Of a stretch of 64,000 nucleotides of DNA, positions 1,431 through 47,917 are shown piece after piece. The position numbers and the translations under genes are program-made. Location: assembly GCA_030265305.1 (NCBI GenBank), contig JASAOG010000079.1:237331-301330 (forward strand), read 5' to 3'. Under the pieces are notes generated by a model. The model ran no database searches. It saw only the letters and a program-made list of their open reading frames with translations, and was not told the origin of the DNA. The stretch is from Biomphalaria pfeifferi. Its lineage: Eukaryota. Each line of letters starts with the position of its first letter. Positions within the stretch are counted from its first letter, which is position 1.

Positions 1431-2302
1431 CTATTAAAAAAAAAATATACCATACAGAATATCGCAATAACACAATATACTGATCAGATTATAGAAATTA
1501 AACATTTTGAAAATCATAATATAACTAATGCACAATTTAGTGATCAAAATACTGATAAAAAAGTAAAGAATTGCACATATTTTTTCAGTAATTACACAGT
1601 GTTCAAGATTTTCCAAGAAGACGCAGAAGTTGAATAAGTTAGTGGTATAAGAAGCTTGTTGCCATATGCACAGAAGAATATACTTTCTAAGTCATTATAT
1701 CCTTGAGGTAATAACATTTCTAAATGGTTTCAATTATTTCTTTGAATTTTAAATATTGATCTTTTAGGATTGTCCATAATTCTAACTCTGCTGCCAATTC
1801 TGCAATCCTGCAGGTTAGAGTTGAGACATACTCAATTTATTTATGAAGGAGTACTGAAACTTCAAACATTTAGTTAGTATTTTGTGTTAATTTTTTTGTG
1901 TTAAGCATTTTTTTCCCCAATGTTTTTTAACAATTAAGTTTTTTTGAGAAATTGTATTTGTCTTTAATTTTTTATGTTTATGAAGGCTTTTTGTTGAGGT
2001 ATTTATTTTGCAGCTATATTCTTTGCATTTCTTCAGATAACTTAATATTTATGATTAAACATTTCTTAAAATGTCATTTGTTACTTTTTATTTATATATA
2101 ATGTGATATAGATTAAAAGATTGAAGTGTAATATTTGCTGAGCATAAAATGTTAGTTTTGGTATTTATAAAATATTATATTAAGATTTTGTTATCTAAAA
2201 AACTAACTATAGATAATAAATATGCTGCTCCATTTATCATAAACAGCAACCATCAAAACAATTTAAAAAATCAATTATAAATCAGATAAAACATTGATAT
2301 AC

Positions 2303-2816: not shown

Positions 2817-4207
2817 TTTGAAACCATTGAAATGATGTAGTATTTCTCTTGTAGTTGTTCATTAAGTTGTGCTTGGGATGATTCATGGTTATTTTTGTGA
2901 AATAGAACTCGATATCTAGAAACATGTGTTTCTTTCTTGACCAAACTTCTCCATGGCGTTTTTTCCTAATTAAAAGCCCAAGTTTATTGCTATTACAAGA
3001 CTGCCATCTGTTATATCTTTTGTTCCAATAGGTAGTCTGTCCTCTGTATTTTTTTTTGTTGCTATTAAAAGCATGATTTCTACAATATTGCTTGTTCCTC
3101 TTAGTTGTCTGACAACCAAAATATTCCTTGCTGTCATCACCAGTCTGCTTTCTTCTATATTTCTTGTGCTTATTAATAGTCAATGCTTTGTAAAATTTTG
3201 TGTTTCTATTTGGTGTGTAACCTCTAAAATAGTTCTTGAAAAATGACATCTTTGTTTCTTTAGCATTCTTTTTAATTGAGTTTGAGCTTCTGGAACAGTG
3301 CAAACTTAATGGTTTAAGAGACTTAGATCTAGGTCTTTTAGAAATACTTTTTTTTAGAATGATTTGAACCTCTTTGATTTTCCTTATATTAACACTTGCA
3401 AGTAAAATATTAGATTTTTCTAGTGCTAAAGACTCCAGTTGTCCAGTAAAACATATCTTCTTGGAGTGATATGTCATTTTTGGTTGCACTCTAAAAACAA
3501 GATTGTTTTTCATAGTCTGATTTATTGTAGTGAAAGTGTTTAAGTCCACTGAGTCAGGCTCGTTATTAAGTTCACTCATGTAAAACGTTTGCTCCAAGCA
3601 GGTTAGATTTTCTTTTTGACTTACACTCTCTTTGTCCCAATTTTCAGTTTCTTCCAAATCTTTATTGATTTTATACTCAGGGTCATTAGATTCTTTGTTT
3701 GTAAAGAAGAAAGTTTTAATCTGAGTTTCATCTGCCCCTGGGTCATCAAATCTAATCAGCTTATCATTAAGTTCAATGCTTCCACTAGAACTAATCAGTT
3801 TGTCATTTAGATCAATGCTTTCACTAGAACTAATCAGTTTGTCATTTAGATCAATGCTCTGACTAGACCTAATCAGCTTGTCATTAATTTCAATGCTTCC
3901 ACTAGATCTTATCAACTTGCCATTTAGCTCAATGCTTTGACTAGAACTAATCAATGAGTTGTCATTCGATTCAATGATTTGTCTAGATATTTTTTGACAA
4001 TGACTATAATCTACTGCATCATAGGAATGGTGTAACATATAGTCAAATTTATGTTCTGATCTTGTGTGCAATTCTTTGTTGTCCACGTTTGTGTCATTAT
4101 GGAGCATTTGTTTTTTTATACAATTGTTAACAACATCTTTCAAACTGGAAGTCCTTTTAGCGGCATCATCTTTTGAACAGTAAATCTTCTTTGAATTGTC
4201 TTCCAAA
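2817..4207 (-). CDS. Large exon of an uncharacterised Ser/Lys-rich protein with 7 tandem 13-aa repeats (SSxSI[ED]LNDKLI[RS]) and a Lys/Arg/Cys-rich C-terminal region
   Basis: ORF track 2743..4206 (487 aa). The track's 'M' is a TTG codon, so this is not a true start. An acceptor taatacag|T lies immediately upstream and a candidate donor CAAA|GTATGT sits at about 2817. Repeat copies are about 39 nt at roughly 3760-3990. Confidence 0.55.
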
Positions 4208-6639
4208 CTGTATTACGAGAAAAAAATGTTAGAGAAATTAAGCAATATCAATTATTCAAGCATACAGTTTGAAGACAAAGTGAAATAACAAAAAACTAAA
4301 TCTCAAGCCTAGGAATACCAATAGCAATTATACCTATATGAATAATGTACCACATCACTCCATAAGACAAACCAAATTATAAGGAGAAAAAAATATTCTA
4401 ATCTAATAATAATCTAAATGATAGCTTTAGATATTTTATGATTCTTTTAGGTGGATTTCACATTTTTATAGGTAGACTATAAACTTCTGCACTCATTCTA
4501 AATTTTTGGACTTGACAAAATTAATAATAAGATGTTACACGGGTTGCGACGTGTTTGGATGTGACAATGTCAAGTTAAAATGTGACATAAATTAAAAATC
4601 AGTGTTTTCCCACTTTTTAGCTTCAATACCCCATGAGAATAAATGTCATTATATAAAAATAATTTTTCTCAAATTTAAATTCAGACATATAAACATGGAT
4701 GCAAGCAACAGAGCCCCATTTTTCCTGCAAGGGGGAGGGGGGTCGGCAACCCAAAAAAAAAAAATGCAAGCATGATGCCTCTTATATCTTCACAACATAA
4801 ATAAAACATTTAGCGCTATATATATATATATAAATATATTTATATATATATATGATATAAAGCTAATTTTCTTTTCAATAGATGTCAACCAATTAAAAAA
4901 TACTTTCAAGTATCTCTTAGGACAGAACTACTCAAAATTTTCCAGCTCAGATATCCTTTTACAACCCATACGATATTGGCAGACCCCTGACGCAGCCCGA
5001 TTTGTCTGCCTAAATCGCCTATTGGTAAAGTCACTAGCATAATCAAACTATCCGACCCCTGTGTATTTTTTGGCTCTGTGCTATTCATAATACAATAATA
5101 TACAAAGACTTTTCATTCACTGTTGTCGCATTGCTAATAATTTTCTGCTCATTTATGTATTATACATTTGTTTTACGTTCAAACTCTTTTGGTTCATAAT
5201 GATTTGTTACAAGATGACACTTCAGTTTAGCAGGTTTAAAACTTTTGTTCGATAACGCATTGAAACTGAGAAACATTGCTGCTGTTCACTGTTGCCTTTG
5301 CATGGTAGAAATACAAAATGTAAATATTCAGTAGCACATTTACATGGTGTGGCCTCTCTTACGTCATCATGTCTCATTTCATTTCCACAGTTTACATTAC
5401 ATACTTAAGCTTCAAAAATTTATCCATAATCTAACGGTTAGATGGGCATGTGAATAACAATTTAATAAACATAAATCACCACTGTATAATGTAATAATTA
5501 ATCATATAATGTGCATGATTAATAGCCAGACTGATAGTGTTGCTGAGTCTCAGGGTCATCGGTTGGAAACAGCAAAATGAAATTTGGCCTACTTTCTATG
5601 AATGGCATGATAAATATGAGAAATTAATAGAATGATGGATAAGTTTATAAAATAAGTACATTTGATTTTCATGCGCAAAATATAATTCTACTACAGGCCT
5701 GTTATTAATCATTGTTGTTTAGCCAAGATGTATCAACAATAGTCAGAATAGTTCGTAACAGACATATTAAACAGTAGTGAGTGGCGAGTTGATCATTATT
5801 CAATTTAACCGATCGGATTTAATTGGCTTTCAGTGAAGAAGTTATTATATAATTGTATAAATTTTCATCTTTCTGTGGACCCCCTCTATGGTCTTCTTGC
5901 GCTACCTCAGTGAGAACCACTGTTATAGGAAATAGCTGATTTAATTGATTGAGAAACACTGTAAAATAATGATAGTTGCTTGCAATTATCATGAAGAAAA
6001 AATTAGGAAAAAAAAAAGTTAAACTTTTAATGATGTCAAGAATAAGGTTGAAAAATTTTTTTAAAATTACCTTTGAAAATTAGTGCTACAGATGTGTACC
6101 AAAACCTTCTCATGGAATGAATGTATTATTTCGTTAGGCATGACTAACTCTGAAATCAGAAATGTTTCAAATAGAATGATTTTCTTTCTTTTTTTTTTTT
6201 TTTTAAAAAAGCTTATATCAACTAACTCTGTCTAACAGATTGAAAAATAAATTTGGTATGATCACAATACCCTTTCAAAGGCATACTATGTATGTATCAA
6301 TCAAGAACCTAGGATAACCTCTGTAATATGATAAGGCCTAAGCCAAGCCTCCTGTAGTGCCCTGGTAAAAAATCTGCCGTGTACCACGGTGCCAATTAGC
6401 TCCAATACAGTTCTAGTGACCTAACAGATATACGTCTCCCTGCAGCTTACCAAGAAAGAATTAAACAATGTTCCAATGTTCACAGCTTTATTTCACTTTT
6501 AAACACTTGACTGTGAACTGTCCATCACACTATCATAACATCTATTCTATTAAATTCTATTCCAATACATTATCTTAACATTTATTACACAGTTAACAGT
6601 CTTCCTTTCATTCTTTTTTTGACAATTTATAAAAGTGGA

Positions 6640-8219: not shown

Positions 8220-8789
8220 CGGTTCTGTTTTTTTTTTCTATAGTGAAGATTTACAAACTTCGTGACGTGATTGAAAAGTAATTTCGCTTATAATAATACG
8301 CCATTGTTTTATAAACCAGTTATTGTAGGTTGTATTTTCACTATGAAACAACCCATAAAAATGGATCTTGAACAAAAGATGCTTATTTGCGTTATTTTTT
8401 GTGTTATTTTTGTGAATTCATTACATGTAAATGTTAATATGTAATTTTTTTTTAACTTTATCGATTAATTCACATCAATCTGATTTTAGTCCATGAACTA
8501 ATAATATGAAATTTGGTAAATCATTTATGTATATTAAAAATAGTAGTGGACCAACGATTGTTCCTTGGGGTACACCAGGTACGTGGGGGGGGGGGGGGAG
8601 GCTAAGTGTACGACATCGTTCTGACCATATTTAACGCCCAGGCTGGAGGGGTGGGGACTACCGAGTGTGCGACATCATTCTGACCATATATAACGCCCAT
8701 GCGTTCATCTCATTTCTATGAGCTATGGGTTTATTAGAGGAAATTTCTATAAATCAAATAAGAACAAAAAACTAAAATGTTATTAAACC

Positions 8790-9280
8790 TTGGTAAGCCC
8801 AATAATAGAATATGCATCCTCTGTTTGGGACCCCTCAACTCAAGAGAACATTAAGAAACTTGAGCAGACACAAAATAGAGCAGTGAGATTCATAACAAAC
8901 GAATATTCACATTTGACTAGAGTAACACCTTTAGTAAACTCACTAAATTTAGAAAGCCTTCAGGACAGAAGACTCAAAAGTAAAGTAGCAATTATACATA
9001 AAACACTGAACCATAATCTTCAAATACAAAAAACAGAATATAATAAAATACTCAGAAAGACACAAAGATAAGGGCACATTCCTCGTTCCATATTCTAGGA
9101 CAAATTTATACAAAAGCTCCTTCTTCACTAGCGCTATTAGAGCATGGAATGGGTTGCCTGAGCTAGCCAGGAAAACCAGTTTAGGTCATTGGTTAATATG
9201 CATGACTAAATGTATGACGAGTAAGACGTAATCATCTTTTTTGAAATAACGTCTGTATCATATAAGATAAGATAAGCTGA
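8790..9280 (+). mobile_element. 5'-truncated copy of the same LINE family (RT C-terminus plus 3' tail)
   Basis: ORF 8790..9071 is near-identical to the C-terminus of the 50312 ORF (PIIEYASSVWDPSTQENIKKLEQTQNRAVRFITNEYSHLTR). The tail 'atgcatgactaaatgtatgacgagtaagacgtaatcatc' is present. Confidence 0.9.
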
Positions 9281-11267: not shown

Positions 11268-11500
11268 ATTCGCGGTGGCTGAGCTGTAGAGCACTTGGCT
11301 TCCGAAGCGGGGGTCTCGGGTTCGAATCCTGGCGAAGACTGGGATTTTTAATTTTGGTATCTTTGGGCGCCTCTGGGAAAATTAGAGGCGGTTGGTCGTT
11401 GTGCTGGCCACATAACACCCTCATTAACCATAGGCCACAGAAACAGATGACCTTCACATCATCTGCCCTATAGATCACAAGGTCTGAAAGGGGAACTTTT
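11268..11500 (+). mobile_element. tRNA-derived SINE, family C (gcggtggctgagc...gggttcgaatcc...ccctatagaccacaaggtctgaaagggga)
   Basis: Three copies. ORFs 11194..11478 and 11255..11473 are spurious. Confidence 0.9.
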
Positions 11501-13254
11501 TTTTTTAATGATAAACTGCATTAATCCTATATGGTCTTAAGGAGAAGAGACAGGAAACTAAGGTGAAGAACTATCATTTATTGTAACAAGTATAAGGACC
11601 AAAGTTTACGTAAGCCACTGCACATTATAGACCAAGCTTTAAACACACAGTTAGAAATTGCTTGTAGTAGACTCCTCCCCCATTTTTGTTCCGGTTGCCT
11701 GAATGTATAACACCAGCTAACTTTGCAATGACGCATACATTGATACATAACACGAACACATATGCGCTTAGTTCCTTGGTCATACATTTAATTGTGTAAT
11801 GATAGGCTCAAGTTGTTTTCCGAGAAAATGTATCCCCCCCCCCACCATTCTTCCCAACAGCCCTTCCTTCTTTACATTCCTCTACACAAGATCTTGGCCG
11901 ATAATCTGATCTGTGTACACAAGGTGCTTTAAAAGTAGAATTTTTGACATGATGGACACTAGGTCTTTTAATAGAGACCATTATAGGCCTACAGTAGTCT
12001 TACAATTATATTGTTATCGGTGACAAGGTTTTTGTGGGGACACGAGTTGATGTTGACCACGACTTGGCCTAAATTGTGCCGATGTGCCTAAAATCAAATC
12101 AGTTGATGTTGAGCGTAGGTGGACACACAACTGAACTGATTATGGCTTAGTGTTGGGTGAAGAGGATTACTTATTTTCTTATACCCCCCCCCCCCCCCAA
12201 AAAAAAACGTGTATCAAACCTTGTTTAATGTTCAAAGAAATTATTGCATAGTAGGCCTACAAGTGTGTCTATGAATAATTTACTTCCTTCCTTATTAGAA
12301 GAGCACACTTTCGGCTTTGTCACGCCAATGCACTAACACACACAGACTACAACACACGCGCACACCAAGTAGGCCTGCGCACACCAAGTAGGCCTACGCA
12401 CACAGAGTGGATGCAAGATGTGTATTCTGTTTAAATCTTATTTCACTTCTCTGTCATTTCTTCATTGGCCAATAATCGCATTCAAGTATGTAGCAATACT
12501 CTCCAGCCCCGGCTCGTGTACCTACTGAATTTTATTATTATTATTATTTTTGTAATACAATCATGTTGTGTGTGTGTGTGTTATTAACCATTTTTTTTTG
12601 ATGGGGGGGGGGGGGGGGGCTGAGGTCCTCAATCTTTTATGTCTTTTTTTTTTAATTAATTAATTTATTTTTCGAAATACATTTGTATAATGGTTCATTG
12701 CTATTGTAGCATGCGACTATGGATCATCTTAGAGATAAGATGAATGCCTGGGTTTTAAGCTATATGGACGAAAGGATGTCGTCATTTATTGAATTTGTTT
12801 TCATCACCTTTATGCTCTTTGCACGACTTCAACATTACTTTAGCCTAGATAGTGATGAATTAGTCTACTTTCTACTTAATTATGTCATTACACAAATCTA
12901 GATTGTGATCATAGTGATCAATACTCAGGCAATTTTTTTTCCAGCGTTTTTAGTCTACTTTAAAAATAAAATCTAGAATTAGAATTAAAACCCAAATAAA
13001 CCAAAGGCTAAAAAAAAAACACTAAAACTAATAAAAACTACTTTATTCATGGTAAGCCTGTGATGTAAGCTTAAGATTAAAAAATATCTAGTGTTATGTT
13101 AAATGAAAAGTTTTTCTAAAATCTCCATAGGCCTACTGACGAAATTATTAAAACATAATAAAGCATAACAAATAAATAAATAACAAACAAATAATAAATA
13201 AAACATCAGGGTTTGTTAAAAGATATTTTTACCAACAGAACAAGAGCAGAAAAC

Positions 13255-19005: not shown

Positions 19006-20367
19006 ACTGATTGTAAATGTTCTGCATGAAAGATTTAGCCTTTAATAATCAACGTTACTAATGATTCAGACAGGCTTGTCATGTATACTTCTTTTTATAA
19101 AAAAAAGGACAGTAAAACAAGAGTATAAGATTGTGTGTCAGTGCAAATAGTTTAAGATTGTTTATCACCTCAAAGTTATAAGTTTGTGTTTCTCTGTAAA
19201 GAGCATAAGATTGTGTATGTAGCTTTGAATGGAAGTGCAATAAGTGCAGACGAATTAACTAGGGAAAATATGTTTTAGTATTTTTACCTAAAGCCAACTA
19301 CAGTTGTTAATAATCCTGATAATTCAAAACTCTCAATGATAATATTTCTTTTTACTAGCCACATCCTAAAGAGAGGGGGAAAAAAAAGTCTTAAATATTT
19401 TTTTCATAATAAGAAACCACAATAAGAATTTGAAATACTCTCCAACATTTTATTCAGATGATCCAGTAACAAAGTTTTAACATTATTATAAGTTGAATCA
19501 GAAAATTATGGGATAATTCAATATTTTTATAGTCATGAGTGGAGTAGTATCAAATATAACATCTTTATTTTTTATGAATAGGCTTCAAAGTTTTGGGCAA
19601 TATATCAAATAGAATAGCACAATATGTCTTTAAAAGATATTTTTTTAGACATTAAATAGAATAATACAATGATTTTGTACAAGTCATCAAACAGAATAAC
19701 TTACAACTTTTGTACAAGACATCAAATAGTAGACAATAATTCTGTACACTACATTAAATAGAATAAAATGATAGTTCTGTACAAAACATCAAACATAAAT
19801 ATTCTAGCAATATAAATTTGGTTTTCAGTTCCAATCATATGACATAGATGACAATAATCAAGTAATAAAACAGATTTATAAAAGAAAGGTATCACACACA
19901 AAATATCTTATCTGGACAAGAATATAGAACTACATTGGTTTGCATACCAGTAATATAATTGTCAACAATTTATAAGCTCATTTAAAAGATCATTCTAAGC
20001 CTTCAGAAATGAAATAACATAGAAGACAGTCAGACTTTGTAGAAACTAAACACTGAGAGGAGGGGAAATGAAGGGAGGAAGAATAATTGTAACCAATGAT
20101 CATAGAGAAAAATCTGCATGAATCAATTCATGAATGTTTACATTCAGCTTTGATGGGTTTGTTCTCTAAGGCTTATTAAGAGATTACAAAAAAACAACAA
20201 CATGATTCTCAAGGATAAAAACATTACTATTCACATTATATAAGCATGATTGTGTATACAAGTGTTTGTAGAAGATACAGCATATTTTGACTTTTGTGTT
20301 TTAGCTTCATTTTATTTTCAGTTTATTGAACTTAAAAGGATTGATTGTATTCTAAGTGTATAGAAGA

Positions 20368-20562
20368 ATATGGCTGGTCGTGCGGTTTGCGCGCTGGACT
20401 GTCGTTCGGATTTATCGACGATTGAGGGTTCAAACCATGCCCGCTCCCATTCCCCGTCGTCCTGCAGGAGGTTTGGACTAGGAAGTAAACTATCTTCAAC
20501 TCTGAAGGAACATCCGAAACATGTAAAACATTTTACAAAACAAACAATTTACCAACAACAAT
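20368..20562 (+). mobile_element. SINE family B copy
   Basis: Near-identical. ORF 20370..20564 is a spurious translation. Confidence 0.9.
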
Positions 20563-23104
20563 GAAATTATTTCCCAAAAGGAAAACCTTCAAGAAATAGC
20601 TTGAAGTGGCATTTCTAATTTAAAAATAGAGAAATTAAGTTATCTTTTTTTTTCCAAACAAGCTTATTTTCCTAAAAAGTCTTCCTATCCAAAAAATATG
20701 AAATGGTACAATTCTTTATCACATGGCATGTAAACAAACTTGATTATTCAAAATTAGAGCTTGCAGGCTGTTTACAAAATAGTTTTTGCATAATATCAAA
20801 ATGATTTGATAGACTAATTGGGTTGTTAAACCTAAGCTAGTGTTGGTACAGACTTTTTTTTTTCATGCAATAAAGTTTGTACAGAGGTCTAGAAGGAAAA
20901 ACTGAAAAAGATTGGTAATTGTTTCAATTGTTTTTATTTTTTGATGTTGGTTAGCCTCAGGGGTAGCATCGGAAATGCAGGTGCTCATATTTTGAAGATC
21001 AAGTACAGAGCAGGAAATCAAAAAAGATGAAATGAGTAGCTAGATTTACTAAAGCTGCCTTGCATTTTGCAAAAAATATTGAATCCACAATCTACTGTAA
21101 GACAATAATGTAAAAAAAAATTAAGAAAGTGTCTGCATTAAATATTTCTTATAGACAACTAAAATCCTAGTGAAGCACTTAAATCTACAAAACTTGTCAA
21201 TGAGAATAAGTTACCCATGGGCACTACATTAATTAGTGAAATGCAAAGGAATGAAAAGGCTGAGATTCATCTGTGTCACTGAAAAATACAACTGACTAAT
21301 GTAATGATCAAACATGTGTTATCAGACTGATTAATGCAATGGCTAATGTGCAGAACATAAAGTTTATTACTTCAAATTTTCTACACAAGCAATGGTTCCA
21401 GAAGAGTTGATTTATGCTGTTCATTCAATTTTATTTTTAGCTGAAAATATTTTGTTTATTAACTTTTCACTCCTATTTGATAATGCTTTACTTGAAGAAA
21501 AAGATTTAACAAAAAAAAAAAAAGACACTAATGTAAAGATTATGCATACAAGTGTATGTTGTCCTAGTTTATGTTATTCTCCTTGGCATGGAAATTAATA
21601 TTTACATGTGTGTGTGTGTATGTCTAAAAAAGTCTGTAGATAACAACTGTCCTTAATCCAGTTTATGGTGTGGCCCTATCTTCAGTTGTTTTTTTATCTA
21701 ACACATTTTGTACTTCCTAAGATTAGTACAAGAATAATAATCAGGTAGGCTACAATTTGATAACTGCAGGTTACATGTTTTGTTTAGAAGCCTATCACTC
21801 AATGATAGTAAGAATCCATCCATCACAGTAGATTTGAACAGTGTTATTGATAATATTAGTCTAACACAAATAAAAAATTTAACAATGACATTGAATGATA
21901 TCTGACACAAAAGAAATCAATATTGCAGGTTAACACTGGAATGTAGAAATTGATTGTTTTTTCAGCAAAGACATTCAATTGGTGGAGCAGAAGGTGCTTA
22001 AAGCATTTGCATTAATTAGTGTCCTTTTTTTTGAAACACATCTAGTAGTTTATGAAATTCTAAGTTTTTCTATGCTCTTTTAGTTATTTGCTTGCATTTT
22101 TTTTCAGAAAAACTAAACAATGTATTACATTCTTTCAGCTCTGATGATTTCATTCTAAATGTTTTTTTATTCACTAAATGATGAGATTTAAAAAATACAG
22201 AAACACAAGTAACAGCTTGTATCCTCAAGCTTTCATCATTTCTCAATTCGATAAAATATGTAAAACTTTAGATTGAAACACAAAATTCTTAAGGACACAA
22301 AATATACTGCTGACATAAAATCATTGTATGCGGTCATGAGGAGACAAGTTTTTAAAATTGCTGTTGGAACTCAGCAAACACAATTCAGCTCTAGTTGAGG
22401 CTGAGCCCCTAAGTTCTCTGCCATATAGCCCACCAAACATCAAACCAAAAAAAAGCAAACACATTAAGCCCAAAACAAAACTGAATGTATCATCAAAAGT
22501 TAGGGGATTTAACATCTGAAATTGTGTTTTGTTATCTATAAATAGCAAACCAGATTTTTTCGTTCACACACATACAAAATCAATTTCATTGGTCTGTCTC
22601 AACCTCAACAACCAGTTTCTTGTGACCAGTATAAACCTGTTTCTATTTCAATAAAATATCTTATGAAAATTTTTATTTTTTGTTCTGAATTGGATGTTAT
22701 TTTGATCCAGACATATGAGTCTTTATTACAAGGAGAAATGCTTCAACTTTTTTTCTAATGAAAAAAGTGATATAAAGTTAAATGACTGACAGCAAGATAA
22801 TCACAAAGTCAGGTTGAAAGCTATTTGACTGATAGCTGGTCACAACACAGGTAACTAAAAATAGCTAAGTCACTTAGTTCTATTTGAACTTTTGAAATTG
22901 TGATTGTAGTTTTACAATCAATCAACGAGAGGAACTTACACTAAGTATGTCATAGATAAGGTACAAATTTGGGAAATTCAATTTCAACCAAACAATAGAC
23001 ATACACACTAATACATGGCTGAGAATATTACAAAACAATAAATAATACATTTCTTGATCTACAGTTCCATCCAAACTTATTCATAGCTTTATGAAAGACA
23101 AAGA

Positions 23105-23220
23105 TGTAACAAACAAGCTGTCTGTTACTCCCAAATGTTTGACAAACAAGCTGTCTGTTACTCTCAAATGTTTGACAAACAAGCTGTCTCTTACTCCCAA
23201 ATGTTTGACTAACAATGAAC
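23105..23220 (-). repeat. About 3.5 copies of a 33-bp tandem repeat (acaaacaagctgtctgttactcccaaatgtttg) in the presumed 3'UTR of the attractin-like gene
   Basis: Direct reading. It produces the repetitive spurious ORF 23028..23237. Confidence 0.8.
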
Positions 23221-23323
23221 ATATAACCAAATTGCACTAATGCTATGGCCTATAAAACGAAGCCACTTATTTCTTTCACTTTGAGTTCAACAGAAAGAAA
23301 AAACAGCTTTCAATCATGCACAT

Positions 23324-23418
23324 GTGTCAGGATGATTATACATAAGATTTTTCCTAATTTTTGGCTTATCTCCTTTGGCATGTTCAAGACTCTGTTTACG
23401 ATGTGAACCTTGAGGCAG
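23324..23418 (-). CDS. ATRN: ATRN-like terminal coding exon (GSHRKQSLEHAKGDKPKIRKNLMYNHPDTCA*), stop TGA at about 23324-23326
   Basis: Acceptor cctcaag|GT in phase with the preceding exon. The C-terminus '...PDTCA*' parallels human '...AQPGTCI*'. Confidence 0.7.
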
Positions 23419-23479
23419 AAATACAAAAACATCATTTAGTACTAAGGCATCACACTGTACACAAAATAATATTAAAATA

Positions 23480-23600
23480 TACTAAAGGTTTTAATATCGT
23501 AATATCTATCTATATATCTATCTATCTATATATTTATATATCTATATCTATCTATCTATATCTATCTATCTATATATATCTATCTATATATATTGTACTA
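23480..23600. repeat. Compound (TATC)n/(TA)n microsatellite in the last attractin intron
   Basis: Direct reading. ORF 23361..23678 is spurious. Confidence 0.9.
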
Positions 23601-23602
23601 AC

Positions 23603-23756
23603 CTATAGCAACAAATGCACTACCAACTGCAAGCCCAGACTGTCCACAAGGAGCAAACACAGCATCACCAGTTGGTAGCTGTATAAATAGGGTAAGAATA
23701 GCCGCTTTGTGGTCAGCAAGAGGCTCAATGGCAATTGCTGAAGGTTTACTCATCAT
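23603..23756 (-). CDS. ATRN: ATRN-like exon: cytoplasmic tail (MMSKPSAIAIEPLADHKAAILTLFIQLPTGDAVFAPCGQSGLAVGSAFVAIG)
   Basis: ORF 23598..23792. Acceptor ttatccag|ATG, donor ATAG|GTTAGT. Matches human 'IALEPCFGNKAAVLSVFVRLPRG...PPPGQSGLAVASALVDIS'. Confidence 0.9.
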
Positions 23757-24399
23757 CTGGATAAATATGTAAGTAATATTAATAAAATACACTTAGTAAC
23801 AGGTAGACAAAATTCACCAAATTTAGAGATGAGCACAGTTCAGCCCAGAAAGAAATATTTAGTGCTGTTCAAAATACAAGCATTATATGATCTGAAGATG
23901 TTTAAGTCAGTTACGCTAGATTTTATTGGTTCTTTGCCATAAGTGCCATTTGTATGTTTAAAAAATATAATGCAATGAGTTGTCACAATTTGAGTACTAA
24001 TCTATACTATAAAGTAGAATGTAAGGCATATGTATGTGCCGAATAGAAATAATAACCGTTTGACCAAAATAAAACTTGGCATAAATGTTCCTTGGGTACT
24101 AACTTAGACCGTAGTGTATGTATTGTAGCCCTAAAACAAACTTAAGACCCTCAAAAAAAAAGTTGACCAACTCTATGAAAGTATGCTATTTTATGAATCT
24201 AGGCTATGTTTACCATGTAGACATGAGAAAAGATTGAAAGGATTTAGATCTGGATCTAATTTTAAGAACTACATTTTGCACATATAGTTTTCTACTTTGA
24301 CACATGAAAATACAAATTATAGTCTATTGATTTCATTATTTAATAAAATTAAGCTTCAAATTTGTGTTTCAAAAGCATTTTTACATAAATTCGTTCTTC

Positions 24400-24485
24400 A
24401 TATCTGCGAATTATGCATGACGCGTAGGACGTAATCATCTTCTTTTTTGAAGTAACGTCTGTATTATATAAGAATTTAGAATTCT
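24400..24485 (+). mobile_element. LINE 3' tail remnant
   Basis: Carries 'tgcatgacgcgtaggacgtaatcatcttcttttttgaagtaacgtctgtattatataag'. Confidence 0.7.
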
Positions 24486-24893
24486 TGACGTACATGCTCT
24501 CATTAGACATTACCCGAAAGGTTACACATCTCTCTATTCCTGGGTCTAAACCTCTAATACAACTTTTAAGATGATAGAACTTCTCTTTGCTAAGATAGTT
24601 TTATACTTTAACACATGAACATACTAATTATAGTCCATTCATTTTATAATTTAATCAAATTAACATTCAAATTTGTTCTTCTAAAGCATTTTTACATGAG
24701 TGCAACTCTATTCTTAATATCGTGTGAATTCAGGTCAATTAGCTATTTTTAGCTCCATTCATAATATTTTTTATTCATGAATTCATGCATTCGCTTTACT
24801 TATAACATTAATATTTTCTTTAATTGTTTCTAATACACTATATCAGTGACTACCGTATTTTTCGCCGTATAAGACGCACTTTTTCTTCTCCAA

Positions 24894-24925
24894 AACTGGG
24901 GGGGGGGGGGGGGGGGGGGGGGGAG
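24894..24925. repeat. G30 homopolymer followed by (GA)4
   Basis: Direct reading. Confidence 0.9.
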
Positions 24926-25497
24926 AGAGTTAGTGCGTCTTATACGGCAAATACACATTTTACATGCATTAAAACTGCCCCCAACTTTGTGTGGCGCTTA
25001 CTCGCAGTCCTTTCCTTATGCAGTGTGTGCTGCGGGCTGGATTTGGGGCACGTACTGCAGGCTGTGGTGACTTCTGTGACCCTCCCTGCACGGCCAGGCT
25101 GTGTGTGTTCGGGCTTCCCTCTCCCTCCTATAGCGCGCCATGCCCCCCTCCCGACAGTCTAACCATGTGCTGCACAGGCATCATGCTGAGCTTACTGCCG
25201 GTACACACCGCCCTCCCTACGTCATAATGTGCCGTCTGGGTAGATCACAGACAACGTGTATGGTGTATGTGAGAAAGTGATCAGGCGGACCAACCAGTAC
25301 AGTATTTGGTTCAGAATCTTTTTTTTCTAGATTTTCCTCCTTTAAAATTGGGTGCGTCTTATATGCCGGAGCGTCTTATACGGCAAAAAATATGGTATAT
25401 CAGCAATATGCAAGTTAAGACCCGCGGACTGGGGGTAATATCTGTCTAGTGCATTTATAAAACTAAAATATTTTTTCTATCAAAGAATCTAGTCTAT

Positions 25498-25790
25498 GGA
25501 GGCGCGGTGGCTGAGCGGTAAAGCGCTTGACTTCCGAACCGGGGGTCCCGGGTTCAAATCCTGGTGAAGATTTGGATTTTTAATTTCGGGACCTTTGGGC
25601 GCCTCTGAGTCCACCCAGCTCTGTTGGGTACCTGACATTAGTTGGGGAAAAGTAAAGGTGGTTGGTCGTTGTGCTGGCCACATGACACCCTCGTAAACCG
25701 TAGGCCACAGAAACAGATGATCTTTACATCATCTGCCCTATAGACCACAAGGTCTGATAGGGGAACTTAACTTTTTATAATCTAGTCTAT
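25498..25790 (+). mobile_element. SINE family C copy
   Basis: Shares 5' and 3' ends with 11268. ORF 25489..25683 is spurious. Confidence 0.9.
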
Positions 25791-25954
25791 TGATGGGAAA
25801 TGATGACAGACTGAAATTTTAATGTCTTTGAAATTCACAACCACTAAACTAGTTGACAGCTCAAGAACATCCATTTTACAGTGACCTTGACATATATTAC
25901 CAAAGTCTAAGCTGTTATATACCTTACATATGATATATTACAAACATAACTTAC

Positions 25955-26095
25955 TTTTTTTCTTCTTCGTAGCACTGAATCCAGATGATCTTTTTTCTCT
26001 CCAGATATTATCTGATTGTGAGTCTTGTGATCTATTTCTACAGATATAGTGGAGAATGGGCGACTGGCCATTTGTTGCATTTCCACTATCAATTG
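25955..26095 (-). CDS. ATRN: ATRN-like exon: cytoplasmic tail with MASRPF motif (QLIVEMQQMASRPFSTISVEIDHKTHNQIISGEKKDHLDSVLRRRKK)
   Basis: ORF 25907..26092. Acceptor caacccag|CAATTG, donor AAAAAA|GTAAGT. MASRPF is the signature motif of attractin-family cytoplasmic tails. Confidence 0.9.
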
Positions 26096-26507
26096 CTGGG
26101 TTGAAACAAATAAGCAATGATGGGTTTAAAAAAAATTAAATTTACAGTATGTATAAAAAAAAATTAAGTTGAAACTAGTATTACAAAAAAAAAAGTTGAA
26201 ACAAGCTAACTATCTAAGGAGTTAAAACAAGTACATAATAATATAAACTGAGATGTATAATATTGTTAGATTTTAAATTAATTTTTCCACATAATTCTGG
26301 TTCTTTTTGTATCTAGACATAAACATTAACCTTTTGGGATATAGGATTCTTAAAAATGAGGAAACCTCATTTATGCTAATAGTTTAACTTTAAAAAAAAA
26401 AAATATGTATGCTAACATTTTTTGTTGTACTCTTAGAATTTAGAAGCACTTACAACCTGAAGGTAACTTCAAACAAAGGTTGCTGATTAAAGAATGAGAT
26501 ATTTTTG

Positions 26508-26510
<3 letters not shown>

Positions 26511-26582
<72 letters not shown>
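26511..26582. repeat. (AT)n microsatellite, about 35 units
   Basis: Direct reading. Confidence 0.95.
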
Positions 26583-26590
<8 letters not shown>

Positions 26591-26699
26591 TCTGAAATTA
26601 ATATGACTAAAATATTTTATACAAAAAGTTATGAGTTGAAAAAAAAAAAAAATTTTTCTTAAGAAGCATGAGTAAATAATATTTGATGAAATCAAATTC

Positions 26700-26920
26700 T
26701 AAGGCCTTCAGCCATGGAGCAAATATGGATCATCTCAATGAAATGGAAACATTAGCTATGTTCTGACCAATATCACCCACACAGCACTCCCTCTCTGCCC
26801 AACTGATGTATCCAAAGGAACAGTAAGTGCTGATACAGTTTAAAAGCAATGGCATTGCAGTCTCTGTCAGGGTGTATCACTGTGTGCTGCTAACTGCCAG
26901 CTCCTGATTTCTTTTAAGAT
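26700..26920. repeat. Unclassified interspersed repeat (family D)
   Basis: Shares about 200 bp with 40330-40545 ('...ctgcccaactgatgtatccaaaggaacagtaagtgctgatacag...ctgccagctcctga'). ORFs 26877..27071 and 40321..40506 are spurious translations. Confidence 0.7.
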
Positions 26921-27206
26921 TGTCTTCCGAAACCTTTTCAAGGGTAATAAGCCTCTCCTGTCTGAAGCTACTGGTGCCAGTTACAGGCATTAGCCCTTCT
27001 ACTGTTAGTGTTAGTTCAGCTGGACCCAATATCTGAGCCACATTAGGTTCAGCAGTTGGACTAGTTGTCATAGGTTATTTGAGATGCATGCCATTCGAAG
27101 CATTTTATAGGTAGTGGAGTGCTTGTATCAATTACCACTTCCAGCAATACATTTTTTTTTAGTTTTTTTTATTAAATATTAACATGTAAAATATAAGTTG
27201 TCTAAC

Positions 27207-27285
27207 CTGTCTTCTCCTATAGCTGTCATACTTATGTTTTATTTTCCATAATGCAGCTGCAATCAGGAGCAAAGATAAAAAGCAG
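27207..27285 (-). CDS. ATRN: ATRN-like exon: transmembrane C-terminal half plus stop-transfer (CFLSLLLIAAALWKIKHKYDSYRRRQ)
   Basis: Within ORF 27159..27470. Acceptor gtttgtttcag|C, donor GACAG|GTTAGA. Matches human 'SCFLSLLLVAAVVWKIKQSCWASRRREQ'. Confidence 0.85.
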
Positions 27286-27504
27286 CTGAAACAAACAAAA
27301 AAATCAATATATCCCAAAATTGGCAAAGTTAAAAATAAAATAATCAGAAAAAGTAGCCTAAGTATTTTTGCTTGTTGATTGATTTGAAAAGGGAATAACC
27401 TTATGTAAATCCATAGTGTAATTTTTTTTTTTGGCAGAAACACTAACCAAGAAAATAAATGATAATACATTAATGATTTACATTTTTTGGTTATTTATTT
27501 TGTT

Positions 27505-27652
27505 TATTTATATATGTTTTGAATGTTCCTTCAGAATTGAAGTATATTACACAAAACCTCCACCACGATGGTGGGGAATATGAGGTTGGGTAGGGTTCAA
27601 ACATGGGGCTATCAGAATGACAGTCCAGAGCACATGACAAGGTAGCCATACA
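27505..27652 (-). mobile_element. SINE family B copy (inverted, truncated)
   Basis: 'gttttgaatgttccttcagaattgaag...gggttcaaacatgggg...gtccagagcacatgacaaggtagcc'. Confidence 0.75.
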
Positions 27653-30535
27653 AATATATTTGCACTAACTTGAAAATAATAATACCCCCCCGCCCTCCAA
27701 AACTAGTTTTCATATTTTTCCCACAGAGTATCATTCCATGGATAATCATCATAAATTTAAGATAAACTTTTAAACATTAGTATACACATAATGTTTTAAC
27801 AAATGATAATTTTATCAAATCTATTAGAAAGATTAATTTATTTTAAAAAAAGGTTCTTCAAAAATAGAATACTATGTATTTTACACAACTTTATCATAAA
27901 AAGCTAATCAACTAATCAAGAATAAAGTCATCACAACTAATAGGAATTCTGCTTTATGATACATATTATATATAATTTATTTTTATGTTTAATTGACTTG
28001 CTTTGATTTTAAATTTGTTATGGCTAAAATAATTTTGAATGGAACATCATCATTTACAACAGCAACAGGTCACTTATCTATAGTGACACATGGAAATACC
28101 AACACATGCAATATATAGAAACATCAACCTTACTATACAATGAAAACAAAAATTAAACACAACTATCAGCCAACCAAGGAAAGAACACAAAGGTCAAGGT
28201 TAAAAAAAATTACACTAGCAAGGTGTCAACGGACAGTTCTAGGAGCACAAGCTAATGTTCAGTTCTGAGGTCACATAATTAATGAAGCACAGTTTTCAGG
28301 AAAACATACTAATTAACAGTTTTTAAGTCAAAGGAACATGAACATGGTAATTGTTGACAAACAGTTTGCTCTAGTCACATACTAAAGGACAATGCCCAAG
28401 GAAAAGGGTTATGGTCATTCTCAAGTTCATAAGTTATTAAGCCAATAATCAGTTCCAAGGACACAAGTGACCTAGTTTCCAGGCCATTGACTAACAAAAA
28501 AGTTCACCTGTTCCCAGGTCAAATGTTAATAGATCTTGGATCACATGTTAAAAATGTTCCTAGGTCAAAAGCTATTATTTAAAATTAATTCATTTTTTTT
28601 ATTTTCTAAGGAATGTTATTAAAAATATTATTTTCTTGGTGTGTATATATATATATTTAGATAAATGATAGTTTTGAAAAATAATATGAAAGATAAACAC
28701 CTTAAAAAAATATAAATTTTTAAACTAATTTGTCGAAAAATACAAGTAAAAAATAATCAAGCAAAGATTTAAGCAAGACTTTATTTTAATCATTATAGTT
28801 TAAGACTTTATTTTAATCATTATAGTTTTCTTACTAATAGTTACACCAAAATAGTGGTTTAATTCTTCAGTTATTTATGATCAATGTGGTCCTACCCATC
28901 TTTCATTAATTATAGTTAAATTTTAAAGAATTGAACATTGTAAACTATTTATCAAATGATTGTAAAGAAAACTTAAATGTAGGATTCTGTCAGCACTTAC
29001 CTAAAGAAAATAATAAAAAACCTAAGCAGATTGATTTTTTCAGGCTGAACAAAAGAAATCTGTAAAATAAGGCAAACAATTGAACAAATGGACACATGCA
29101 ATGGTGTGTTAGTAGAAAGCATGGATTGAGGGCATTTATCTAGGACTGATTCCATTCTCAATTAGCAAGTTTGAAAGAAATAAAAATACCAGTATTGTTG
29201 AAGTTTTATCACATTTAAAAAAATTAATTAATTTTCTTTGGGCATATAAGTGCATAAAGGAAATAATATCAAGAAAAAGGTAATTTAAAAAAATGAATTT
29301 CAAATTTTCATGATAATGGATGCGGAAGGGCGTTTTTATGACTTCTTTTGAGAAGGATTGCTAAGACTTGTGTTGGTTTCTCATTATGTCTGTTATTTAA
29401 AAAATAGCAATTGCTTGTGTACAGAGTAAAATAAATGAAATGAATCCAAGATAAAGCTTAGTTTATTGCATGGATGGGTTTTTGTAGCCAACTCAAAAGT
29501 TTACAGACACAGATACATTTTCCATTTTCTTTACTGGTAAGCAATGTGTGTATGTGTGTAGGGGGAGTGTAAAAGCCCACACCCAACTCAAACACACACA
29601 CACACTTCAACTTTAAAATGCAACCAATCACCTACATGCAGTAAACTAAGCCATGCCACAATCATGGAAACAATAATGTCACAATCATGGAAATAATAAT
29701 GCCAAAATGATGGAAACAAAAACATGAAAAGAAAATAGCAAACACAACAATAACTGGGAAGTCAGAGCAATGGGAAATCAGCCTTTGACAAACACATTGA
29801 AAAAAAAACAACTGTTTGCCAAGGTTGTCATCCCAGTTTACCTACCTAAAAAATGTTACAAAAAAGTGAACTAGATCTATTTTTGGAAACTGTGAAAAAG
29901 ATATCTGAAAAAATATATCCAATAGAGAGTATTATGTTCAGTGATGTACCTTTAGTTTAACTGTTTCAGACATAGATCAAGGATGAATAGCTGACAAAGA
30001 CCAAAGGAAATATGAAATAAAGGCAAATCATAAAATCGGAAAAACAGAGCCAAAATCAAAGGCATCCTTTTTTTTAAAGCCTTAAAGTTGTTTGTACACT
30101 CTTTGGTTAAGGAATTGCAGTCAATATACAGTTGTTAAAAAAATTAATTTAAGGATTATTTTACAAATATTCTCAATAAACAGAAAATTCCCAACAGATC
30201 TATTCTGAAATATGCCCTGAAACAGGGTGGGGCTTTAAGATCCCAACAGATATTTTAAAATATGCCCTGAAACAGTATAGGGATTTAAGCAGATCTATTC
30301 TAGATTAGCCCTAGTAGGGATTTAAGCAGATCTATCAAAAAGTGTCAGACTTTCATATCACAACAGGTCTATTAAAAGAAAACTTTTGTTTTACAGAGTG
30401 AATAATCCATTTAGGTGCATTCTTGGCCATAATTTTATTTGTTTTCTAAAGAAGTCTTAATTTGAAAAAAAAATAATTTTAAAGGCAGTTTCAAGATTCT
30501 AAGATGGTCAGTATGAAATAAGTCTACAATTTTAC

Positions 30536-32739: not shown

Positions 32740-33015
32740 TATTGGGAGGAGTGGTCACTGAGTGGTAAACCGCTTGGCTTCCAAACCGGGGGTCCCGGGT
32801 TTGAGTCCTGGTGAAAACTAGAATTTTTAGTTTTAGGATCTTAGGGCACCTCAGAGTCCACCCAGCTCTAATCGGTACCTGACATTTGTTGGGGAAAAGT
32901 AAAGGCGGATGGTCGTTGTGCTGGCCACATGACGCCCTCGTTAACTGTAGGCATATAAACAGATTTCCTTAGATCAATGCCCTATAGACCATAAGGTCTG
33001 AAAGGGAAACTTTCC
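32740..33015 (+). mobile_element. SINE family C copy
   Basis: 'ggaggagtggtcactgagtggtaaaccgcttggcttccaaaccgggggtcccgggtttgagtcc...ccataaggtctgaaagggaaac'. Confidence 0.9.
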
Positions 33016-33189
33016 TTTTTTTTTTAACACTTAAATATTAAATGAGATAACTAAAGAGTTAGAAACACTGAGCATTAGTATATTATAGAAAAAGCTAGAA
33101 TTTTAGAGTTAATTAATAATATCGTTTTTAGTGCTGGCACTTTAAAAAAAAAAATGTATTTAAGAAATTCATTGAAGCAAAGCACTTAC

Positions 33190-45839: not shown

Positions 45840-46990
45840 TTCCCGTGGTTGAACAGTGTCAGTCCCAGCTGTGACCTACATATTTTGCCACATCCAGGGC
45901 AAGCATAACCATTGTCCGCAGGTGGTCAATTTAGATTTTCTTTTCGCCGTCTGCGTTTGTCCTCGGCAGCAGATTTTCTTTTGGTCTCAAATGTGTATCC
46001 CATGGCCTTCGTGAGTGACCTCCAGCTGTCTCGTTCTGAGGCCGCATGCAACCAGGTGCTCTCTTCTATGTCAGACAAGGAAAGTTGACGCCTACGCTAG
46101 TCTTTGAAGCGTTTCCTTTTGGCGCCTCTGTTAGGTCAACCACCTTTTAGCTCACCAAAAAAGAAGGCTTTTGGCATACGTTTGTCTCCCATATGGGATA
46201 CGAGCCCTACCCAGCGTAACTGTCGGACCAAAAGAAGTCCCTCTATTCTGTCCATACCAACGTTCGCAAGGACATCGCTGTTTGTAGTGCGGTCTTGCCC
46301 CCGTATGTCCATGATGGAGCGCAAGCATCTTTGGTGGAAGCGCTCAAGAAGTCTTAGATGTTTCCTGTATTGTGTCCATGTCACAGAGCCATACAGAAGG
46401 GTTGACAGAACCACCGCCTGGTAGACAATGATTTCTGTAAGCAGGCGGAGCGATCTGTTCCGCCAAACTCTCGCCTGAAAGCGCCCAAAAGCGCTACTGG
46501 CCCTGGCCAAAGGTTTATCAACTTACCTTGAAAGTGAGGCGTCATTTGAAACTATCCTACCTAGATATATGAAGTGGTCTACCACATTAAGGGGCTGTGT
46601 TGTTTTATTGGGCGACTTCTGTTTTCCCGAGGTTTATAGATAGACCAAAAGAGGCGGCAGCGTATGCAAATTCATTTACCGCTTTCTGGAGGTCATGTTC
46701 ATTGTGAGCTAGCAGGGCGCAATCATCGGCATAGAGAAGCTCCGTTATGACCATCTCCTTTGCCTCTCTGTTAGGGCGACACCACCCATTTTAAATATTT
46801 CAGCGAGAAATCCATCAGAGCCAAGTGCCTTGTGTTTTTTTAGTTTAGATATTGCTGTCTCAATTTCCTCAGATGTCAGTGGGTCGTCGAGCTCCTCTCT
46901 CATAGTTTTCTGGGGGACATTTGCCAGCAATTCCTCCGATACGTGCCTTTTATCCCCAAACAGCATACTTAACAAAATAAATATAAATTA
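45840..46990 (-). mobile_element. CR1-like LINE, internally deleted: RT N-terminal region, then C-terminal conserved region, then 3' end
   Basis: ORF 46136..46510 (YGSVTWTQYRKHLRLLERFHQRCLRSIMDIRGQDRTTNSDVLANVGMDRIEGLLLVRQLRWVGLVSHMGD) is a typical CR1/L2 C-terminal block. ORF 46745..46975 is the RT N-terminus. The 3' end is the reverse complement of the CR1 tail seen at 35405. Confidence 0.85.
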
Positions 46991-47917
46991 TCTATGTTGG
47001 TCACACTCTGTACTGCAGTGCTAAACAACTGAAGAGAACAGGACACTATATTTCCTTGGCACAGTCTGCAAAAGAGCTTACAGCTCAGCAGCAAAAAGCT
47101 GGCTAGAAGAAGAAGAAGAATCTTTGTTGGTCATAGCTTAAAACATTTTAAATTATATCTATTCTATCTCCATTTACAATCATAAGAGAAAAAGAGAAAG
47201 AACCATCCTTTTTTGTGTGTTCCCTTTCCTGTGTTAACAAATAGTTTAAAAAAATTAATTTAAGTGCCCTTTCAGACCTTGTGATCTATGTGGCAGATGA
47301 TGCAAAGCTAAGCTGTTTCTATGGCCTATGTGTTAACATAGGGTCTCATATAAACAGCACACCAAAAGCCTTTAATTTCCTGAACTAATTACAGGTACCC
47401 AGCAGAGTTGGAGTTTCCTAAAAAATCCAGACTATATAAAAATCCCAGAATTGAACTCAGGTTAAGCACTTTATCACTAGACCATCATGCCTATTTAACA
47501 AATTGTATTACTTTTTTGTATACATAGAAATAGTGAAATAATTTGCATGTTGTTTTTTTTCAAAATACTATTTGTAGCCAACCAGACATTCTCTTCAAGG
47601 AAAGAGGTCAGGGTTGTCATTGAATTTTATAAAATAATGTGACACTAAAGATGAATAACTCAATAAACAACAACCAGAAATAATAATATAGAAAAGAAGT
47701 GCTAGAACAAATGTTATCAGAAATTAAGAAGCAAACTAGCGAACAGAGTGATCTAGTAAAAATTTTTTTAACAAATGTAAAGAAGAAAAAATGCTAATAT
47801 GATGATATTTAAAAACATGAGTACCATCTCTCTAATGTTCACAAGTCTAAAAAAAAACCATACAAAGCTATAGTCGATACAAGGTGTCTGTACATGCTAA
47901 AAGTCCTTAATACTTAC

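Follow-up and report, generated by a model that had tools for sequence, protein, structure and literature searches.

The island at positions 24851-25397 of the window, the whole 64-kb stretch of Biomphalaria pfeifferi DNA analyzed here, is very probably a non-autonomous, MITE-like copy of a Passer transposon that has lost internal sequence, measures 547 bp, and was inserted at a TA within an intron of the snail attractin gene. Passer has been placed in the pogo superfamily of the IS630-Tc1-mariner group (PMC7386202; PMC9976928), and the element is a previously undescribed copy within this already known family. Annotators should mask the island as a non-autonomous DNA transposon of the Passer/pogo type and should treat it neither as a gene or novel structure nor as a problem of the assembly.

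Boundaries and Internal Structure of the Element

A sequence-only reading of the region had described an inserted, mobile-element-like island rich in GC. This description was borne out: the GC content was 0.56-0.605 across positions 24900-25300, compared with 0.25-0.35 on either side, and the island was bounded by terminal inverted repeats (TIRs). The outer inverted repeat that defines the element was absent from that reading. It was detected by repeat search (I1, 24851-24877 and 25371-25397), with arms of 27 nt that are 93% complementary and bound the island exactly. When both 28-nt TIRs were compared with each other, 24/28 positions agreed. The window copy has the dinucleotide TA at each end with no further flanking repeat, and this TA may equally be the tip of the TIR.

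Four copies of the motif GTGCGTCTTATACGGC (allowing up to three mismatches) were found in the 64-kb window, all of them in the island, while 0.05 copies were expected from shuffled sequence. The inverted motif copies reported in the sequence-only reading were thus real, but their number had been given as three and their coordinates were off by 3-7 nt. In its 12-16-nt form (GTGCGTCTTATA...), the motif occurs once in each 27-nt TIR, with an additional tandem copy at the right end and an inverted copy approximately 37 nt inside the left end. The features of the element are as follows (window coordinates, strand, description and support); L125 denotes a second copy of the family, described in the next section.

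24851-24852, no strand: left TA, putative target-site duplication; L125 and the full related copies start with TA-CCGTA and end with TACGG-TA
24853-24879, plus: left TIR CCGTATTTTTCGCCGTATAAGACGCAC, holding motif copy 1; I1 and the Centruroides sculpturatus Passer terminus
24864-24879, minus: GTGCGTCTTATACGGC copy 1, 0 mismatches
24880-24932, plus: hairpin spacer, consisting of a T-run, CCAAAACT, G26 (24898-24923) and AGAGAGTTA; L125 spacer, with G7
24933-24948, plus: GTGCGTCTTATACGGC copy 2, 0 mismatches
24933-24951, plus: inner inverted motif copy 2, GTGCGTCTTATACGGCAAA; inverted repeat I2, motif scan and fold
24957-25297, plus: GC-rich, non-coding, family-specific interior; approximately 93% identical to L125, indels excluded
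25298-25397, plus: right subterminal region and TIR; homologous to the Passer stretch from stop codon to terminus
25352-25367, plus: GTGCGTCTTATACGGC copy 3, 2 mismatches
25352-25384, plus: tandem motif copies 3 and 4 at 17-nt spacing; direct repeat D1 and motif scan
25369-25384, plus: GTGCGTCTTATACGGC copy 4, 1 mismatch
25369-25395, minus: right TIR; I1, 93% complementary to the left TIR
25396-25397, no strand: right TA, putative target-site duplication; L125 and related full copies

With a length of 547 bp (below about 800 bp), TIRs and no coding capacity, the element corresponds to a MITE in size, ends and non-coding character. The observed/expected CpG ratio was 0.57 in the GC-rich core and 0.22 in the intronic flanks (20000-30000), which points to a gene body strongly depleted of CpG in comparison with the element core. 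The interior (24957-25345) had no second copy within the 64-kb window, in agreement with its earlier description as unique there.

Protein-level searches of the element gave consistently negative results. A tblastn search of the window with a related Passer transposase returned nothing below E = 4.8, and the missing DD35D transposase is expected of a non-autonomous derivative. Likewise, an autonomous Passer with exactly these TIRs was encountered neither in the window nor in any sequence demonstrably from this snail. The interior ORFs had been considered spurious, a judgment that was upheld: in a word-index protein search they matched only an ORF of L125, another copy of the same element, and the L125 ORF used as query matched only itself. 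An exhaustive HMMER search of the interior ORFs yielded three low-complexity, multi-stretch matches that were judged irrelevant, and the protein searches found no recognizable gene fragment in the GC-rich core.

At the nucleotide level, matches of the hairpin region to miRNA- and lncRNA-like Rfam families were far below threshold (19-23 bits, compared with gathering scores of 55-230). A literature search for the motif strings returned unrelated primers only. A scan of viral contigs with GCGTCTTATACGGCRAAA gave one match, a chance one inside a GC-rich phage coding region.

A Second Copy of the Family

The contig L125 (ENA ERZ27259963:k141_3976, 926 bp) was found as the sole match in a protein search with a spurious 112-aa ORF of the island. 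Its positions 68-832 (765 bp) constitute another copy of the family, with unrelated flanks and with ends of the form TA-CCGTA...TACGG-TA. The parts follow in the same order as in the window: left TIR, hairpin spacer, inner motif, GC-rich interior, right subterminal region, tandem motifs, and right TIR. Identity to the window copy was approximately 93% in the left block (gaps excluded) and 97% over the right 99 bp, and L125 carries G7 at the position of the G26 of the window.

The copies seen are thus the window element and L125, of unequal length (547 and 765 bp): approximately 260 bp of L125 are missing from the window copy, and a 44-bp segment of the window copy is missing from L125. Since the GC-rich interior is common to both, it is family sequence rather than locus-specific sequence. 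The first 21 nt of L125, AGATGTGTATAAGAGACAG, are presumably an untrimmed Nextera transposase adapter, so these 21 nt are not genomic.

Relationship to Passer

Passer is defined by a DD35D transposase with BrkDBD and HTH_Tnp_Tc5 domains, TIRs under 30 bp, and a TA target-site duplication (Gao et al. 2020 Mob DNA PMC7386202; Wang et al. 2023 NAR PMC9976928). The supplementary tables of these studies give CCGTA/CCGTA termini and TA/TA duplications for elements from oomycetes to vertebrates, and their tabulated hosts include 26 mollusc species, among them Lymnaea stagnalis and Radix auricularia (PMC7386202; PMC9976928). The snail element shares with Passer the TA-CCGTA termini, TIRs of approximately 27-28 nt containing TATAAG(A/G)CGCAC, and the TA flanks, as well as tandem motif copies at the right end and, at the left end, a hairpin that includes an inverted motif copy. 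The teleost Passer ConsTIR used in vectors, TA-CCGTATTTTCCGCACTATAAGGCGCACC (PMC9976928), was matched at 23/28 positions by the left TIR and at 21/28 by the right TIR.

The nearest listed Passer is that of a scorpion, whereas the host of the present element is a hygrophilan snail. The Centruroides sculpturatus entry AXZI02010594.1:28354-33625 is a 1951-bp element encoding a 441-aa transposase (PMC9976928, Table S1). Its first 28 nt were identical to the left terminus of the window copy including the TA (28/28), and its first 101 nt were 90% identical to window positions 25298-25397. For L125, identity to the scorpion element was 87% over 228 bp.

The homology to the Centruroides Passer ends approximately 45 nt beyond the transposase stop codon. 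Being confined to the region between stop codon and terminus, it identifies the right part of the snail element with that region of Passer, and the element as an internal-deletion derivative. In contrast to intact Passer elements of 1.6-4.0 kb, the snail copy has 547 bp and no transposase gene, and it carries the G26 tract and a GC-rich interior of no established origin. Strings from the interior were not found in the Passer supplement, whose entries give approximately 400 nt of sequence each.

As a short, non-coding, TIR-bounded deletion derivative, the element resembles pogo-derived MITEs such as Emigrant, which derives from Lemi1 in Arabidopsis (Feschotte & Mouches 2000, as cited in PMC7386202). 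A TA target and a transposase supplied in trans are features shared with pogo-derived MITEs and with the Stowaway-like MITEs derived from Tc1/mariner. Unlike Emigrant and the Stowaway-like MITEs, however, its parent is Passer and not Lemi or mariner.

Relatives in Metagenome Contigs

Relatives were sought by scanning metagenome contigs for the tandem pair GCGYCTTATA-N7-GCGYCTTATA, which occurred at at least 120 loci, with a rough chance expectation of a few. A scan of the metagenome contigs with the exact 27-nt TIR consensus gave no match. Most of the listed loci had the layout ...GGGT-GCGTCTTATA-n7-GCGYCTTATA, followed after approximately 10 nt by TACGGTA and then by unrelated flank, and the right end of the window element, GGGTGCGTCTTATATGCCGGAGCGTCTTATACGGCAAAAAATATGGTA, shows the same layout. 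Among the matches listed, both ends were present in 17 contigs; these elements ranged from 108 to 2720 bp, had the form TACCGTA...TACGGTA, and showed no duplication beyond the terminal TA.

Transposase ORFs, split by frameshifts or introns, were found in L070, L078, L124 (2397 bp), and L098 (2720 bp). The joined protein of L070 matched the Pfam domains DDE_1 (1.8e-27), HTH_Tnp_Tc5 (1.6e-13), and BrkDBD (5.9e-7), and 35 residues, counted by hand, separate its second and third catalytic aspartates (VWD...QPLD).

The orientation of the transposase gene relative to the asymmetric ends was opposite in L070 (1193-3589, coral-type) and in the Centruroides Passer entry. The gene of L070 starts near the double-motif end, while that of Centruroides stops approximately 270 nt from the double-motif end.

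Satellite-like arrays of a 17-nt unit containing GCGYCTTATA were also noted, in L066 (6-100), L008 (~3880-3990), L028 (~20-130), L038 (~6300-6420), L077 (~1990-2110, minus strand), and L106 (~2530-2640). Such arrays may have arisen by expansion of Passer subterminal repeats, or they may be unrelated repeats that happen to match the scan pattern.

Left-End Hairpin and G Run

The left TIR and the inner motif copy form an inverted pair (I2, 24861-24880 and 24932-24951; 20 nt, 95%) with the G run in its loop. Folded as single-stranded DNA, the subterminal hairpin 24861-24951 reached -23.3 kcal/mol (z = -8.3), so the strong hairpin anticipated for the island was confirmed. The foldback-like appearance arises because the inner motif copy is inverted relative to the copy in the left TIR. 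The G run, previously given as 30 nt, comprises 26 nt (24898-24923) and is the longest in the window; when 19 Gs are subtracted, the spacing in the window becomes 38 nt, which is the family norm.

Among the metagenome matches listed, the left-end hairpin, with the inverted copy 36-57 nt inside the TIR motif, was present in 22 of the 27 distinct single-motif ends. The inverted copy in these 22 ends was usually directly preceded by GGG or GGGG, and the remaining five ends carried decayed versions of the hairpin. The same left-end layout was found in the Passer entries of Anguilla, Cepaea, and Hydrolagus, with G6 in Hydrolagus. Judged by these sequence comparisons, the Passer family has conserved the hairpin and its G-tract in subterminal position. 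Since relatives have a native G-tract at the same position, G26 is an expanded form of it. The expansion from a G3-G7 tract may have occurred by replication slippage, or the length may have been over-called by sequencing.

A quadruplex-aware fold placed a G4 in the hairpin loop at -97.7 kcal/mol, with parameters that are not calibrated for DNA. Formation of a G4 by G26 in the hairpin loop is thus feasible as a model prediction.

In coral-type lineages, both ends carry the terminal motif GCGCCTTATA and the subterminal motif GCGTCTTATA. This pattern would favor position-specific protein-binding sites over selection for perfect hairpin pairing.

Other runs of 14-17 G or C occur in the window at 8585-8598, 12184-12198 (minus strand), and 12603-12619. 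They are non-coding and lack the Passer motif, and they show that long G runs are not peculiar to the site at 24898-24923.

Alternative Explanations

A Pack-type or composite origin was considered, in which a complete mini-MITE of 107 bp (24851-24957) would form the left part and the core would be host or foreign DNA captured between it and a second right end, the whole being mobilized as a unit. The inner motif is indeed followed by CGGCAAATACAC, which resembles the right terminus CGGCAAAAAATATGGTA in degenerate form; however, the inner inverted copy at approximately 37 nt is conserved in full-length autonomous Passer elements, which identifies it as something other than a second terminus. 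A 108-bp minimal family member exists (L039). The core has a GC content of 60% in a genome of 30% GC and matches no available Passer sequence, but it lacks a recognizable gene fragment and is also present in L125. As the core is common to both copies, any capture would be older than the amplification of the family and not peculiar to this locus. Such an origin is considered unlikely.

The sequence-only reading had proposed a foldback element or a chimeric assembly joint, and neither proposal held. Long poly-G runs are a known class of artefact, the G26 tract exceeds every other G run in the window, and L125 has G7 in its place. That an assembly joint or a sequencing artefact (e.g., two-color Illumina poly-G) created the island is nevertheless very improbable, as matched TIRs and TA bound it and the G-tract is native to the family at exactly that position, so that at most the run length is wrong. 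Moreover, L125 was assembled independently and shows the same architecture and interior between unrelated flanks, which rules out a local assembly chimera. Foldback (FB) elements have in common with the island inverted repeats able to form a hairpin, here a stable one between the inverted motif copies. The arms of FB elements, however, are long, internally repetitive, and make up most of the element, whereas the TIRs of the snail element have 27 nt and no long array of tandem subrepeats, its arms measure 20-27 nt, its inverted copies account for less than 20% of its length, and its interior of approximately 390 bp is unique. The Passer family, unlike FB elements, has a DDE transposase parent, and the island is a conventional Passer/pogo transposon with 27-nt TIRs and TA flanks. 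A hAT-type element was suggested by the 8-bp sequence TATATCAG, present at 24839-24846 and 25396-25403 (direct repeat D4). As a target duplication it was rejected, since neither copy abuts the TIRs: a gap of 4 nt separates the left copy from the TIR, and the right copy runs across the terminal TA. No 8-bp duplication was found in L125 or in the 17 full relatives among the metagenome matches listed, and the termini are unlike hAT ends and match Passer. A true foldback or a hAT-type origin is thus regarded as extremely improbable.

Mechanism, Age, and Origin

For a non-autonomous Passer copy, a Passer DD35D transposase acting in trans would bind the ends, excise the element, and re-insert it at another TA. 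The insertion would duplicate the TA, as in IS630-Tc1-mariner/pogo transposition, and the repeated motif is most likely a putative transposase-binding site. On the Passer interpretation, the autonomous partner would be a DD35D gene flanked by TACCGTATTTTTCGCCGTATAAGACGCAC. The GC-rich core could be parental non-coding sequence from upstream of the transposase gene, filler that the family took up before it amplified, or captured foreign DNA.

The two TIRs differ from each other by 7%, as do the two copies, a level that points to an insertion of moderate age that is probably no longer mobile. The identity of 87-90% to the scorpion element in non-coding sequence suggests horizontal transfer, which would be plausible for this superfamily. 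The likeness to the scorpion Passer is one more candidate example of transfer across phyla in a family under development as a gene-delivery tool.

Going by the vector sequences in the supplement (PMC9976928), published Passer donor constructs contain 28-bp TIRs only. Transposition therefore does not strictly depend on the subterminal motif copies, which would be accessory at most. The Passer ends are conserved in their asymmetry, one having the hairpin with its G-tract and the other the tandem sites; minimal 28-bp TIR vectors leave this architecture out, with a possible effect on transposition efficiency.

A broader proposal is put forward tentatively, with more doubt than confidence. A Passer lineage may have crossed recently between chelicerates and gastropods, the phylum-spanning left-end module of TIR motif, spacer of about 37 nt, G-tract, and inverted motif may be a functional second transposase-binding or hairpin-forming unit, and its expanded, quadruplex-capable G26 may then alter the mobility of the element or the local replication and transcription of the attractin intron.

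Host Locus

The attractin exons were located by alignment to the Bulinus truncatus locus L002, which aligns to the window at these four exons only, with 77-87% identity.

27201-27291, minus: attractin exon; alignment to L002
25952-26099, minus: attractin exon before the tail exon; alignment to L002
23587-23759, minus: attractin cytoplasmic-tail exon; 77% DNA identity to L002
23312-23411, minus: attractin exon; alignment to L002

The joined peptide of the transmembrane exon (~27.2 kb) and the tail exon (23.6-23.8 kb) was 86% identical to a Bulinus truncatus protein. The intron that contains the element, between 25952-26099 and 23587-23759, measures approximately 2193 bp here and approximately 636 bp in Bulinus. 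The earlier placement inside an attractin intron was therefore correct; the position downstream of the tail exon was not, because attractin lies on the minus strand and the element is upstream of that exon in gene orientation. Neither an empty site nor a copy of the element was found in L002-L004 (Bulinus truncatus and two other snail contigs), where the alignment was restricted to exons. No evidence was found for an effect of the Passer copy on attractin.

The same intron contains, beside the Passer copy, a tRNA-derived SINE at 25485-25790 (plus strand), and the adjoining SINE of the sequence-only reading was thus recovered. Its tRNA-like head (25491-25573) scored 27.8 bits against the Rfam tRNA model, just below the gathering score, and was reported by ARAGORN as a tRNA of undetermined type. 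Elsewhere in the window, the SINE recurs in at least three copies with 76-84% identity, at 32745-33020, 11271-11507, and 47257-47411 (minus strand).

ORFs resembling retrotransposon remnants, as judged by eye from their translations, were noted at 50312-51550 (plus strand), 8790-9071 (plus strand), 46136-46510 (minus strand), and 49336-49674 (plus strand). One of them, a 412-aa ORF, looks by eye like a reverse transcriptase; a nearly identical copy of its C-terminal 93 aa is found at 8790-9071.
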